Below, piece by piece: positions 1,549 to 21,597 of a stretch of DNA of 24,665 nt; position 1 is the stretch's first letter, and every line of letters begins with the position of its first letter. A model generated the notes under the pieces. That model searched no databases. It was not told the origin of the DNA and saw nothing but the letters and a program-made list of their open reading frames with translations. Made by a program: the position numbers and the translations under genes. Location: the NCBI RefSeq assembly GCF_006345805.1, contig NW_021836354.1:1-24665 (forward strand), given 5' to 3'. The stretch is from Octopus sinensis (taxonomy: Eukaryota).

Positions 1549-1594
<46 letters not shown>

Positions 1595-1623
1595 AGTAAG
1601 CAACAAGAATATCTTCGGTATTT

Positions 1624-1705
1624 TGGTACGATCGTTTCACGCTACATCATTCTATTAAACATTGTAAGTATTACATCAGTTTAAATGTTGAGCAATCATC
1701 AGCCA
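1624..1705 (-). ncRNA. Type I hammerhead ribozyme, long stem II (inverted copy)
   Basis: Minus strand reads UGG-CUGAUGA-[~57-nt stem II]-GAAA-CGAUCG-UA-CCA. Confidence 0.75.
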
Positions 1706-1736
1706 TTCATATGTACTGATGGAAAACCTCTATGAA

Positions 1737-1819
1737 TGGCTGATGATTGCCCAACATTTTAAACTGATGTAATACTTACAATGTTTAATAAAATGATGTA
1801 GCGTGAAACGATCGTACCA
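1737..1819 (+). ncRNA. Type I hammerhead ribozyme, long stem II
   Basis: Stem I UGG/CCA; core CUGAUGA at 1740-1746; extended stem II; GAAA at 1805-1808; palindromic stem III ACGAUCGU; GUA cleavage triplet ending at 1816. Confidence 0.75.
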
Positions 1820-1949
1820 AAATACCGAAGATATTCTTGTTGCTTACTTTGATTATAATCACCCCATGGATTTATATGGATAACAGCGTACAAAATTCGG
1901 GTGCATCTGACTTAAGTACCATATTCATTTGAATCTCTATATATATGTG

Positions 1950-1996
<47 letters not shown>

Positions 1997-2013
1997 AGTG
2001 TGTGTGTGTGTGT

Positions 2014-2307
2014 GGAGGCGCAATGGCCCAGTGTTTAGGGCAGCAGACTCGCAGTCGTAGGATCGTGGTTTCGATTCCCAGACCGGGCGTTGTGTGTGTT
2101 TATTGAGCGAAAACACCTAAAAAGCTCCACGAGGCTCCGGCAGGGGTGGTGATCCCTGCTGTACTCTTTCACCACTCTTTCTCTCACTCTTCTGTTGGCC
2201 TGCCGCTTAGCCAGCGGGGTGGCGTCATTCGAAGGCTAAAAAACAATGCGAACGCATTGTGACCAGCGATGTGTAACAACATCTGATGGTCTGGTCGGTC
2301 ACGTGAT

Positions 2308-2315
<8 letters not shown>
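2014..2315 (+). mobile_element. tRNA-derived SINE inserted in a (TG)n/(TA)n tract
   Basis: A-box-like TGGCCCAGTG and B-box-like GGTTTCGATTCC; ~300-bp body; ends in a CACGTGAT dimer. Confidence 0.8.
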
Positions 2316-2347
<32 letters not shown>

Positions 2348-2350
<3 letters not shown>

Positions 2351-2390
2351 TTCAAATGAATATGGTACTTAAGTCAGATGCACCCGAATT
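2348..2390 (-). repeat. Perfect 43-bp inverted copy of 1894-1936 (element tail end)
   Basis: Exact reverse complement by eye. Confidence 0.9.
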
Positions 2391-3240
2391 ATATGCATGT
2401 ATGTGTGTGTGCGTGTGTAATGATATGTAAAGGTAAGATCCAAAGATCCAGATGTGGGAAGTGAATAAGTTCCAAGGTGTCTTGGTCCTGATGCGTAGCT
2501 GGTGGAATGCCGCTCGTTGATTAATTACTACTTCCGAGATTCTTTTAGCTAAAAAACATAATTCTGAATAAAATGCGTAGGGCATAACACGCTTCGAAAT
2601 TTGCATGGTTTTGTTTCAACAAGTTTTCGTTTGGATTGAATTTATTTATTCATTTGTGTTGATCATTTTCTTTTCAGTTTTTCATTTTCCTTTTCTTTTC
2701 TTTTATTTAATATCTTTGATAATATGATAGGCCACATTCTAAACTAATGTTCAATTTAGTGGTAAGAAATTCTCAACAGAGCTAAACAGCAGAATATCTT
2801 TACAGAAGAAACTCCTCCTCAGGTAAGTGTTTCGGTCCTTAACTTCAATTTCCTTTCATTTAATTCTATCTGACGTTTTTGGTGATACGCTAGACCACAT
2901 TCTAAGGCTCAAGTTGAAATTATTTCATATTTCGTTAAATATTTTCAAAATTGAATAACAGATTTCAAGTATCAAGGAAGTTGATTTTCTGGAAATGAAA
3001 TTCAATATTTTAACTCAACTTCAAAATGGTTCAGCAGAAACTAGGAAGCAGTATAATACAAACGAAGCAAATGTCGGTATATTTGAAAGATACTAAATAA
3101 AAATATTCAGAATCGGTTTCATCGCCGGATTTTCATTAACTTTTTAAAAACACACATCATACACGCGTAGTAACAATTTGGAAACAATGGAAAATGCTCT
3201 ATATTAGAAAATATAAAACGCAATATCGTGAAAGTACTCT

Positions 3241-3324
<84 letters not shown>

Positions 3325-3337
3325 TGTGTGTGTGTGA
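3241..3337. repeat. (TG)n microsatellite
   Basis: Directly visible. Confidence 0.95.
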
Positions 3338-3512
3338 GCTTATAGGGATATACTATCAGGGAGGCTACCGTGGTGGCTCTCAGTTATGTTCAGGTTATGT
3401 TTAAACGCAAAGATTAATATTTAACGTTTATGACTAATGTCAGTTGTCATTCACACTGTAAATTCCTCGGATGGGTAATTCCGTGGGTGATTCCACAAAT
3501 GGATAGACCATG

Positions 3513-3620
3513 AAGAAGCTGCATGTGCACTGCCCGTCAACTGTGCAATGAAATAATATGTTGTATAAAATTGTAAAATAAGAGGAAATAAATTTTGAGG
3601 ATGAACAAGTTTCCATGTTT
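3513..3620 (-). repeat. ~105-bp inverted copy of 5360-5467
   Basis: Reverse complement aligns with scattered substitutions. The ORF track shows the same pseudo-peptide in both (KHGNLFILKIYF / KHGDLFILKIYF). Confidence 0.9.
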
Positions 3621-3646
3621 TATATCGTTATAATTATTGCTAGTAT

Positions 3647-18650: not shown

Positions 18651-18660
18651 CTCTTCTCTC
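18522..18660. repeat. (CT)n microsatellite
   Basis: Directly visible. Confidence 0.95.
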
Positions 18661-18799
18661 TGTGACCAGGAAAGGGGGATTTATTTGGCTAGTTTCAAAG
18701 TTTATTACCCCCTCACCAAGAACTGCATACTCACTTGTGTTCACAAAAAGTATGTTAGCTGTTTATATACTTACTAGCATACCCGTGTCGTCAAGAATG

Positions 18800-20178
18800 A
18801 CGACAACTCTATTATTGATAAAAAGAAATGGTGCATTGGTAAATGTCAGCATCAATGATCTCACTATCTCTCCCGACTCACACAAAGAATGCTACAAGTA
18901 CCTTGGCATTGATGAAAATATATCATACCAAGGTACCGTGAATAAAGGTAGAGTGACCCAAGAATATTACACCAGATTAAGTAAAATATGGCTATCTGAA
19001 CTCTCCTCTTATAGCAAGACAGTGTCCTACAGTGCATTTTCAGTACCAGTGCAGACTCCAATATTTGAGATACTTGACTGGTCTGTAGAAGAAATCCGCT
19101 CCAGAGACATGATTCTAACATAGTGTCGTTCAGAGAGCAGCTGCTAAACAACAGCAGCAAAAATAAATACATCAACTTAGTGTTGAAGCGTGAAGAGAAC
19201 AATATCCTACGTGTTGGAAGCGAGGTCCTCATGAAGCGCTCTCTTCCTGATAATCTCCCATACGACTCCAAACTAGCCGGACTAGCATACTTCAAAAACC
19301 GGGAGGTGAAACACTCGGCATACCAAAAAAAAAAGACTCTGCATGGGTATGCTTCTCGAAGACTTGAAGAAGATAGTAATATTGACATGGCACGAAACTT
19401 CTCATGGATTTGTGACACTTTGGAGGTTATGCATTTGCAATCTAGGAACAGGAGGTTGCTACAAAAATTCCTGTTCAACACTGAAGTCATTGGAGTTCCA
19501 AGTTACAACCGTAAATGTAGATGATGTCATATTTCTGTGTAAGATATCACACATATGATTAGCAGCTGCCCAAAAATGCCATCGAGGCACCACCTCCCTA
19601 TGCGACATGACGTTCTCGCAAAAACAATATACAATGCCATTCGGGTAAAAGACTGCCCTGGAATAAATATAGAGAATCCGTCCATTGTTGAATGTGTACA
19701 CATCTATCAGCACAAGGAATACTGGTCGAACATCCCCATCAAAACATGTCAAATGTAAGGATAACAAGCTGGTTATTGTGGGACAGACAAGAAAAAGCAT
19801 GTACCGCCATAAAGGTCAGCGGTCCTACTGCTGTGAAAAGCTCTTTGAAAATCAAAGAGAAAAGAGATAATTATGGACAACTGCTTCGAAACCTTCAGCT
19901 TCTATATCCGGATCACAAATTTACCAATAATTAATTGGAACACTTGATTTTGTAAGTAAATGCCGAACTGTAAGTCTGGATAATCTTGGATTTTCAGAAA
20001 AAGAAATCAACCACCTGATTCGCACATTATAAATACAATCTGTAAATGGAACAGTAAAACTATGCAAGACTTTTTTCAAGTTCAAATTGTGACGTTGTCT
20101 TCATTATCCACATTCCAATAATGAAGCTTTGTTAGAAACCAGCACCTTCCACAGAGGAAGATTTAAATGATTAAATAC
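18800..20178 (+). mobile_element. 5'-truncated decayed R4/Dong-clade non-LTR retrotransposon (RT C-terminus, CCHC, RLE)
   Basis: YKYLGIDE..EYYTRLSKIWLSEL..VPV..W; CR*C..HMISSCPKM..RHD (zinc knuckle); LWDRQEKACTAIKVSGP..KEKRDNYGQL (restriction-like endonuclease); 3' UTR hairpins. Confidence 0.85.
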
Positions 20179-20244
20179 ATAAAAGACAGACAGACATACA
20201 TACACGTGCAAACATACATCCTTATATACTTACATACAGACTTA

Positions 20245-20285
<41 letters not shown>

Positions 20286-20334
20286 TATATATATATACAT
20301 ACACCCACATACATACATACATACACACAAACAT

Positions 20335-20635
20335 ATATCGGGCTTCTTTCAGGTTCTATCTACCAAACCTATTCACAGAAATTTGGTTGGAACTGGGCTA
20401 CAGTAGAGGACACTTGCTTGAAGTATCTATCCACGCCTGTACATGTATGCGCGTGTTTGTGTGTCTGTGTTAAATTTTATTTGTTTCAGTCATTAGACTG
20501 CGGCCATGCTGGTGCACATCCTTCACATTTTTGTGGAACGAATGAACTCAAACTTGGCACTTATTCTAGCAGATTCATTTTGCCTAACCGATTAGTAATG
20601 GGGGCGTAAACAAACCAATACCTGTTGTCAAGAAT
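20335..20635 (-). mobile_element. SINE family A fragments
   Basis: GGGCTTCTTTCAG..TCTACCAAA and TTGTTTCAGTCATT.GACTGCGGCCATGCTGG are reverse complements of family A segments. Confidence 0.7.
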
Positions 20636-20681
20636 TACACACCACACACAACACACACACACACACACCACCACACACACA

Positions 20682-20714
<33 letters not shown>

Positions 20715-20715
20715 G

Positions 20716-20763
<48 letters not shown>

Positions 20764-21052
20764 ATATTATATATATGTATATATGGTACATTATAAAAAG
20801 GGTAAGTTTTTCATTTTCTCTCCGCAGACTGAAAAAATGATGAACACCTTATCGACAGCCTCCAGAGAAACAACACCAAGCTGTTTATATACTCAACAGA
20901 TGCAGCAGTTACTCTATGAGGAGTCCCTAATTGGCATATCGAAAGTGTTTAACACTCTATAACATAGCAGCAGCCTGCCAACGAGGATCTTAGTCCACAC
21001 CGTATCAAAGTAAAATGTAATATATATGTAACATATGGTATAATTATATATA

Positions 21053-21091
<39 letters not shown>

Positions 21092-21094
<3 letters not shown>

Positions 21095-21245
21095 CGACGG
21101 GTTTCTTTCAGTTTCCGCCTACCAAATCCGCTCACAGGGCTTTGGTATCCACAACGCTATTGTAGACGACACATAAAGTGTCGAGCAGTGAGACTGAATC
21201 CACAACCGTGACGATTGATAGCAAACATTTTACTAGACAGTCATA
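21092..21245 (-). mobile_element. SINE family A, 5' half (diverged)
   Basis: ATACGACGGGTTTCTTTCAGTTTCCGCCTACCAAATCC is the reverse complement of the family A middle. Confidence 0.7.
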
Positions 21246-21469
21246 TACATACACACATGCACACACACACATATATGCACGCGTACACTGTCTCCCACCA
21301 CCACCATTTTGCTTCTTTCGGATTGCTTTTTCGTTTTCCGGTTTTTTAACCTTCCACTTTTCTCTATACACTTCCTTCTCACCTTCTCACATTTCTTCTT
21401 TCATTCAATTTTTAGTTCATTATTTACATTATTTACATTTGACGGATGTTTATCTTCCTCTTATTTGTT

Positions 21470-21515
21470 AACACAACGTTTCGGCTGATATACCCTCCAG
21501 CATTCATCAGGTGTC
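21470..21515 (-). ncRNA. Minimal type I hammerhead ribozyme
   Basis: GACAC-CUGAUGA-AU-GCUG-gaggguauau-CAGC-C-GAAA-CG-UU-GUGUU. 5-bp stem I and palindromic stem III (ACGU). Confidence 0.75.
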
Positions 21516-21569
21516 TTGGGGGAAATTTCGAACCTGGGTTCTCATTCCTAAAGTATTTTTAGATTCTTT

Positions 21570-21597
21570 TATTATTATTATTATTTTATTATTATTA

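Follow-up and report, generated by a model that had tools for sequence, protein, structure and literature searches.

Probable decayed ends of Penelope-like elements with predicted minimal hammerhead motifs in an Octopus sinensis contig, and a candidate tRNA-headed pseudo-LTR

Predicted hammerhead ribozyme motifs lie at several places in a 24,665-nt contig of Octopus sinensis (NW_021836354.1, positions 1 to 24,665 of the forward strand, assembly GCF_006345805.1), a microsatellite- and repeat-rich part of a 2.72-Gb genome that was analysed over its whole length and is hereafter called the window. The short elements concerned fall into families that we label A (1591-1936), F (5307-5467 and 3319-3647), B (6039-6540), C (12665-13865), D (14533-14784) and E (21419-21651). 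With a probability of about 0.8, they are the decayed 3′ ends (pseudo-long terminal repeats, pseudo-LTRs) of at least five different families of Penelope-like elements (PLEs), and each family has a predicted minimal hammerhead of its own. Such ends were likely left when target-primed reverse transcription broke off prematurely, and an inverted copy was often appended.

Family A comprises an inverted arm at 1586..1711 (minus strand), which adjoins a (TA)n tract at 1552-1590 and holds a CUGAUGA core at 1702-1696 and the stem III ACGAUCGU, and a direct arm with its tail at 1709..1936 (plus strand), with the core at 1740-1746 and GAAA at 1805-1808, which corresponds to a PLE 3′ end; sequence comparison adds an inverted piece of the tail at 2349..2390 (minus). 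Family B likewise has an inverted arm that corresponds to a PLE 3′ end (6039..6349, minus; stem III ACA-UG-UGU), followed by a direct arm (6357..6540, plus) that keeps the 3′ half of the hammerhead and the tail before running into (CA)n(TA)n. Family C extends from an inverted 5′ pseudo-LTR at 12665..12927 (minus), with a canonical CUGAUGA core at 12892-12886, a G10.1-C11.1 pair and the stem III AG-AA-CU, through a 5′-truncated and broken open reading frame (ORF) at 12926..13521 (plus), which retains the end of the reverse transcriptase (RT) thumb, a Cx4CxxC linker and a GIY-YIG endonuclease (EN), to a 3′ untranslated region (UTR) with (AAT)n at 13522..13865 (plus) that is cut at a TA/TG array, with the 3′ pseudo-LTR lost. 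Family D consists of an arm with its tail at 14533..14695 (minus; core CCGACGA at 14673-14667, stem III ACUC-U-GAGU) and an opposite arm at 14685..14784 (plus; core TCGACGA at 14707-14713), whereas family E is represented by a single piece of pseudo-LTR at 21419..21651 (minus), made up of (AAT)n, body, a hammerhead with its core at 21510-21504 and the stem III ACGU, and a short tail, the tRNA-like head of the family being missing. Inverted partial copies, which an initial annotation of this DNA had described as usual for these elements, are thus present for A, B, C, D and F and not for E.

The hammerheads of the window elements are predicted minimal type I motifs. An Rfam scan of the window returned no hammerhead among 120 matches (E<=10), and a descriptor with A9 placed directly next to stem II failed at the four sites that had been called intact, recovering only D; an unpaired base after A9 is typical of PLE hammerheads (Cervera and de la Pena 2014, PMC4209133). 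A strict descriptor that allows this extra base matched the window once (C, 12892-), against none in 100 Markov resamplings, which served as controls for all descriptors, and a relaxed version matched it five times (1702-, 1740+, 12892-, 14673- and 21510-; that is, A twice, C, D and E), against a control mean of 0.13 and a maximum of 1 in 100. CUGAUGA and GAAA are indeed present at all four supposedly intact sites (1702-, 1740+, 12892- and 21510-), as are the variant cores of D at 14673- and 14707+. The degenerate core proposed at about 6087-6118 on the minus strand belongs to B and reads CCGAAGA near 6118, a minority form of a hammerhead family in which CUGAAGA is the commonest core (35/63 copies).

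The sixth core, placed at 5307-5371 on the plus strand, is a junction artefact. None of the other genomic matches to 5290-5467 begins before query base 71, equivalent to window position 5360, so that the apparent GAAA is the junction between unrelated DNA and an antisense copy of family F; the bases that follow it, ACATGG, are non-palindromic, and the hammerhead of family F sits on the opposite strand. The stretch 5307..5359 (plus) is no hammerhead and forms the end of an unrelated GC-rich segment (4262-5359) that abuts a family F copy at 5360..5467 (minus). This copy is 93% complementary to 3513-3620 and has the same deletion as the other F copy in the window (3490..3647, plus, left edge approximate), where a 5′ core remnant persists near 3510; the 3′ half of the hammerhead is missing from both. 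An inverted F tail lies at 3319..3464 (minus). The GC-rich segment itself, 1.1 kb inserted between the two F copies, matched nothing in Pfam or in about 1.9 Mb of other loci compared. The count of six hammerhead elements therefore stands for five sites, each belonging to a multi-copy family with a minimal type I fold, and fails for the sixth, a chimera.

All six families are multi-copy, as the initial annotation implied: a genome search for each yielded 287-2610 first-look candidates, 40 of which were scored. Core tallies pool all loci compared, after removal of 20 window-own or evidently duplicate loci (a few duplicates remain). A canonical core, CUGANGA with GAAA, a non-G N17 and three helices, occurs in 27/35 copies of A, 28/63 of B, 19/90 of C, 5/59 of D, 58/80 of E and 8/19 of F; it is thus the majority form in A and E and a minority one in C and D. 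Among family copies pairing in the stems amounts to 80-100%, and N17 is only rarely G. The G10.1-C11.1 pair is kept in families B, C and E and is missing from D, F, A (which has no canonical 10.1-11.1 pair) and the window copy of E, where the G10.1 of the family is replaced by U. The A9C core CUGAUGC is found in all nine family C loci with a long ORF and in 55 of 90 C copies overall, and in family D most copies are U4C (46 C against 10 U), a change that lowers and does not abolish the activity of a viroid hammerhead, according to the accessible text of Perreault et al. (PMC3088659). When folded computationally, the inverted pairs of A and D form long hairpins (-194 and -117 kcal/mol), which would keep the ribozyme from folding in read-through RNA.

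A random sample of the chromosomes, 100 evenly spaced 10-kb stretches (1 Mb), contained 12 insertions of the six families (A 1, B 0, C 0, D 4, E 6, F 1). The descriptor scan suggested earlier, when run on this sample, gave 8 strict and 24 relaxed matches (controls 0-1 and 3-7), mostly to other families, which indicates that hammerheads are common genome-wide. With five relaxed matches per 25 kb against 24 per Mb in the chromosomes, the window is about 8-10x denser, and its microsatellite content is 9.4% against 4.6%; since the window was picked for its density, part of this enrichment is selection. Outside the window we also came across a seventh abundant family with a minimal hammerhead, G (L299:6341, L308:7087), whose cores are U4 and U4C in 6 and 6 of 13, and the 1-Mb sample showed six more well-formed hammerheads with a long stem II and an 8-9-nt palindromic stem III (L315, L316, L323, L348, L349 and L370).

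What these short elements are becomes apparent from their relatives elsewhere in the genome. The remnant of a Penelope-type protein proposed at 12921-13515 is real, being 86% identical over 127 aa to a natural open frame of 1044 aa, and the natural open frames of family C (882-1044 aa) carry DKSG, YVDD and GIY-YIG motifs; their Pfam matches (RVT_1, E 0.0013; GIY-YIG, E 0.0025) are both weak and below the curated cut-offs. In 25 of 29 family C loci selected by their ORF the hammerhead region follows the ORF in sense (26 loci when judged by eye), and nine loci show an inverted copy upstream. One long-ORF copy (L092:439-2022) is preceded by an inverted part of its own ORF and has an Asn-rich N-terminal region. 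Family A is preceded, about 1.1 kb upstream, by an EN C-terminus with Hydra-type motifs in two of five long loci inspected (L070 and L079; 29 loci in all), family B by EN pieces with Hydra-type motifs in 6/6 long loci inspected, out of 29, and family F by an EN in L193, the sole locus translated out of 28. A PLE-type RT together with a C-terminal GIY-YIG within a single ORF was seen for C and E, and EN pieces only for A, B and F. The EN motifs of A, B and F are CxxC and CxH around a conserved E and N, and the linker reads CxCx5C in B and Cx4CxxC in C, with none in E. Matches on the opposite strand accompany 9/29 loci of A, 2/29 of B, 12/29 of C, 16/28 of D, up to 16/29 of E and 5/28 of F. A (TA)n tract flanks the 3′ end of 19/29 C copies, as a raw count.

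The links of the initial annotation to Penelope-like RT/GIY-YIG proteins and to minimal hammerheads with a palindromic stem III hold, as that to microsatellites appears to, whereas its notion of many distinct non-autonomous hammerhead families mostly does not. Since copies of A, B, C, E and F elsewhere in the genome run upstream into PLE coding sequence, the short elements are 5′-truncated ends of their own PLE families and not passengers of the protein encoded at 12921-13515. The protein of family C, moreover, had no tblastn match upstream of A, B, D, E or F, so a single shared mobiliser is not supported. The non-autonomous description can be retained for the solo copies of E, which are probably SINE-like (short interspersed nuclear elements, SINEs), and for D, whose partner was not found, and is to be dropped for the other families; the proposed linkage to Penelope ORFs is likewise present in A, B, C, E and F and was not found for D in nine extended and four pattern loci.

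Known PLE biology offers a mechanism. In published accounts, PLE proteins make nicks in AT-rich DNA, initiate cDNA internally behind the hammerhead and leave behind copies that are truncated and inverted, and minimal hammerheads cleave weakly as dimers or with protein (PMC4209133, PMC8557442, PMC11167929). By analogy, the RT/endonuclease of each octopus family would nick AT-rich or microsatellite DNA, and cDNA would start internally just behind the hammerhead, which would make the hammerhead the part most often copied. The ribozymes could presumably cut only as dimers or with the help of protein, and the inverted copies of the window would mostly fold as long hairpins instead of ribozymes.

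Several observations weigh against this picture of truncated PLE ends with a hammerhead each. Among copies, conservation is no higher in the cores than at flanking positions, as would be expected for neutral debris. The coding links of A and F come from two and one translated loci, and family D showed no ORF in nine extended and four pattern loci, where at least 700 nt are non-coding and the UTR may exceed the stretches examined. The clade labels (Hydra, Neptune/Nematis, Poseidon), which we use as provisional, are drawn from linker and EN motifs alone.

Family E deserves separate treatment. An RT fragment beside one of its copies led to a PLE family of apparent Poseidon type (RVT_1, E 6.5e-9; DKG and YVDD motifs), in which the end of the ORF is kept in 22/29 RT-selected loci, 18 of those 22 having a head and the hammerhead body behind it. 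The head is a 75-nt segment that opens the pseudo-LTR about 30 nt after the stop codon. Searched with the A- and B-box patterns of tRNA genes, 6/8 heads contain the former motif and 5/8 the latter, at tRNA spacing. Aligned to the tRNAs of the same genome (40 of 46 listed, 31 distinct; eight named isotype/anticodon types and one unlabelled sequence), the heads score 52-64, whereas the maximum in 500 shuffles was 49; Arg-TCT is the best match in 4/6 heads, an isotype assignment that is tentative with so small a tRNA set. An independent SINE with the same head was considered and rejected: the E body follows 23/25 head ends (20 by script, 3 by eye), and the other two are inverted partial copies.

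Copies of E selected by their hammerhead reach the head in 23/29 cases, of which 18 start at -8..+15 and 3 extend more than 30 bases beyond; exact mapping, which needs an intact A-box region, places the start of 17/21 head-bearing copies at -7..+2 (one locus, L263, was reassigned to the extended class by eye). Unlike these, the 5′ ends of A and C are spread over more than 1 kb. The 3′ ends of E are bimodal, about 35 nt apart (18 short and 11 with a tail, of 29), and in the accessible part of Frangieh et al. (PMC11167929) two alternative 3′ ends of a PLE are traced to two internal RT starts. Extrapolation from the six insertions in the 1-Mb sample gives about 16,000 E insertions genome-wide. 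In RNA reads from a related species (three raw runs, unstranded and fragmented), the E unit is covered on both strands, the depth roughly doubling at the head; the reference used had a 5-nt gap at the cleavage site, so the reads are uninformative on cleavage. A family E insertion at L115:1715-1864 consists of an inverted pseudo-LTR, a 150-nt RT piece and a pseudo-LTR from the B box on, which amounts to an internal jump of some 730 bases. For this insertion a switch of template to a foreign PLE was rejected, because the RT piece comes from the ORF of the element itself, linked to the head at the B box.

The clustering of 5′ ends at the tRNA-derived head suggests a SINE-like offshoot started by RNA polymerase III (Pol III). 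We lean slightly towards an RNA with a fixed start, given by Pol III or by tRNA-like processing, over stalling of the RT as the source of the solo copies, which the Poseidon-type protein would then copy into SINE-like insertions. If this protein needs sequence beyond the tail, as described in PMC11167929, the solo copies would stem from the 5′ pseudo-LTR of a complete element. As a more tentative proposal, which we put at a little under even, a Poseidon-type PLE may have captured a tRNA-derived Pol III promoter where its pseudo-LTR begins and may spawn the roughly 16,000 SINE-like hammerhead copies from a short RNA whose 5′ end is fixed, as a SINE driven by a PLE and not by a LINE (long interspersed nuclear element), and hence a model for the origin of SINEs of the Sm-alpha/Sj-alpha type.

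Against a tRNA-derived head with its own transcript stand several results: ARAGORN called one of eight heads, only at a lowered threshold, and no tRNA in 12 family E loci, and Rfam found no tRNA in the one head submitted. A full-length E with a direct 5′ pseudo-LTR (a junction of 5′ pseudo-LTR and ORF) was not found in nine loci, so the source of the solo copies is unseen, and there is no pile-up of starts or ends over the E unit in the fragmented, unstranded reads of the related species. The solo copies might then be ordinary truncations of a full PLE RNA, the RT stalling or folding back at a hairpin and a tRNA-like structure with no separate short RNA involved. A short imperfect hairpin at about -14..+10 of the head overlaps the 5′ boundary, several inverted E copies join exactly there, and family C also has smaller 5′-end hot spots (7/26 within 12 nt), so that a truncation hot spot could mimic the start site; the missing pile-up of RNA starts fits as well. 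The direct arm of E, however, starts at -7..+2 whatever its neighbour is (inverted head, inverted hammerhead, inverted tail or foreign DNA), and the A and B boxes are kept at tRNA spacing. A T4 run is absent from 3/5 E units checked, the other two giving a T4 run or no read-out. On this evidence truncation alone is possible and somewhat doubtful.

Two further explanations extend to the window as a whole. In one, each short element is a stand-alone, non-autonomous, retrozyme-like retroelement moved in trans by a PLE protein, which would agree with the short, non-coding nature of most hammerhead-selected copies, with D, for which no ORF was found in the loci examined, with the sharp 5′ end of the solo E copies, and with a preprint (10.64898/2026.07.22.740005) that, in its accessible part, derives retrozymes from pseudo-LTRs. 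The union of A, B, C, E and F with PLE coding sequence, the 5′ ends of A and C, scattered like random truncations, and a window devoid of tandem hammerhead units make it quite improbable, and the retrozyme likeness put forward at the outset goes with it. In the other, the hammerheads are non-catalytic relics, or protein-binding structures that PLEs carry without needing them to cut. The A9C core of family C, the U4C of D and the lack of G10.1-C11.1 in A, D and F would suit this, as would the dispensability of hammerhead cleavage for insertion in vitro (PMC11167929, in the part accessible). Against it, seven families with unrelated stems keep the core, the three paired helices and the non-G N17, several of the common variants lie at tolerated sites (N7, N17, loops), and U4C in the viroid leaves some activity; we regard this explanation as rather unlikely. 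Decayed ends of several PLE families, each with a predicted hammerhead, are the reading that we retain.

The overall pattern, wherein unrelated minimal hammerheads occur as PLE debris, in opposite-strand pairs and as single motifs from truncated PLEs, has been known since 2014 (PMC4209133), and the window is mainly a dense example of it. The metazoan PLE pseudo-LTRs of that report resemble ours in that a genome has many families unrelated in sequence, that most motifs are single, that opposite-strand pairs are separated by 100-700 bp, and that A9 is followed by an additional nucleotide and 15.2-16.2 is palindromic; octopus is absent from its main text, and here A, D and F lack G10.1-C11.1 and the A9C and U4C variants are majority forms in C and D. 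The EN+ PLE clades Hydra, Neptune/Nematis and Penelope/Poseidon of Craig et al. 2021 (PMC8557442, cited here from parts of its text) likewise have a C-terminal GIY-YIG, inverted 5′ copies and a 30-40 nt tail, and their microsatellite targeting is probably shared. Its description of Hydra matches the linker of B and the CxxC/CxH motifs of A, B and F, and it lists the octopus element Hydra-1_Obim with a hammerhead and a (TA)n preference; the hammerhead motif given for this element in its supplement is matched by none of the six hammerheads here, and no tRNA-derived pseudo-LTR is described in those parts. Animal non-LTR retrozymes (PMC7229834 and the preprint cited above, both from their accessible text, where the link between retrozymes and PLEs is argued) are also non-coding, hammerhead-bearing and related to pseudo-LTRs, but they form tandem units with canonical hammerheads and circular RNAs, whereas the elements in the window, which have minimal motifs and are linked to ORFs, occur singly or inverted; a direct repeat of family C ends was seen only at L023/L024 and L051.

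The closest parallel to family E is found in the Schistosoma hammerhead SINEs Sm-alpha/Sj-alpha (PMC6765202, PMC2770079), short high-copy elements in which a tRNA-derived head of Pol III type is followed by a type I hammerhead. The schistosome SINEs are described as often tandem, and no autonomous partner is named in the accessible text of these reports, whereas the family E unit physically makes up the 3′ pseudo-LTR of a PLE with RT/GIY-YIG, and its insertions show inversions and a tail of PLE type. No description of a tRNA-headed pseudo-LTR was found in the literature searched (Repbase, Dfam and subscription journals lay outside the search), and a 2026 repeat annotation of octopus does not mention ribozymes in the accessible main text. 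Judged from sequence, the apparent additions to the known pattern are two: the tRNA-headed pseudo-LTR of family E and the A9C core in all nine long-ORF loci of family C. Family E brings together, within a single unit, a putative promoter of tRNA type, a hammerhead and a recognisable RT/GIY-YIG parent. It would allow one to test directly whether SINEs are mobilised by PLEs and in what way hammerhead SINEs originate, and family C is a natural pair (A9 versus C9) for testing whether PLE hammerheads need to cut.

Other repeats fill the rest of the window. Family E is interrupted by the 3′ fragment of another retroelement (21713..22190, minus) with restriction-like endonuclease motifs, which we take to be of R4/Dong type, and a duplicate of about 42 nt of the E (AAT)n-body start at 22228..22269 (minus) is presumably the target-site duplication of this insertion. 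A broken 3′ part of a retroelement at 18780-20100 (plus), with zinc-knuckle and restriction-like endonuclease motifs, is presumably R4/Dong as well. On the minus strand lie a broken non-LTR retrotransposon at 8600-10550 (RVT_1 match, E 1.5e-8), which we assume to be an RTE element, and a decayed transposase-like remnant at 6660-7890 without a Pfam match, presumably Tc1/mariner. A tandem array of a 184-nt unit (2.6 copies) occupies 17289-17762, with related copies at 15600-16090 and 17086-17260; it shows no hammerhead match, and we take it to be SINE-like. The heads of two other tRNA-like SINEs, in which ARAGORN called no tRNA, lie at 2012-2090 and 10574-10655, and the first aligns best to tRNA-Lys (score 73).

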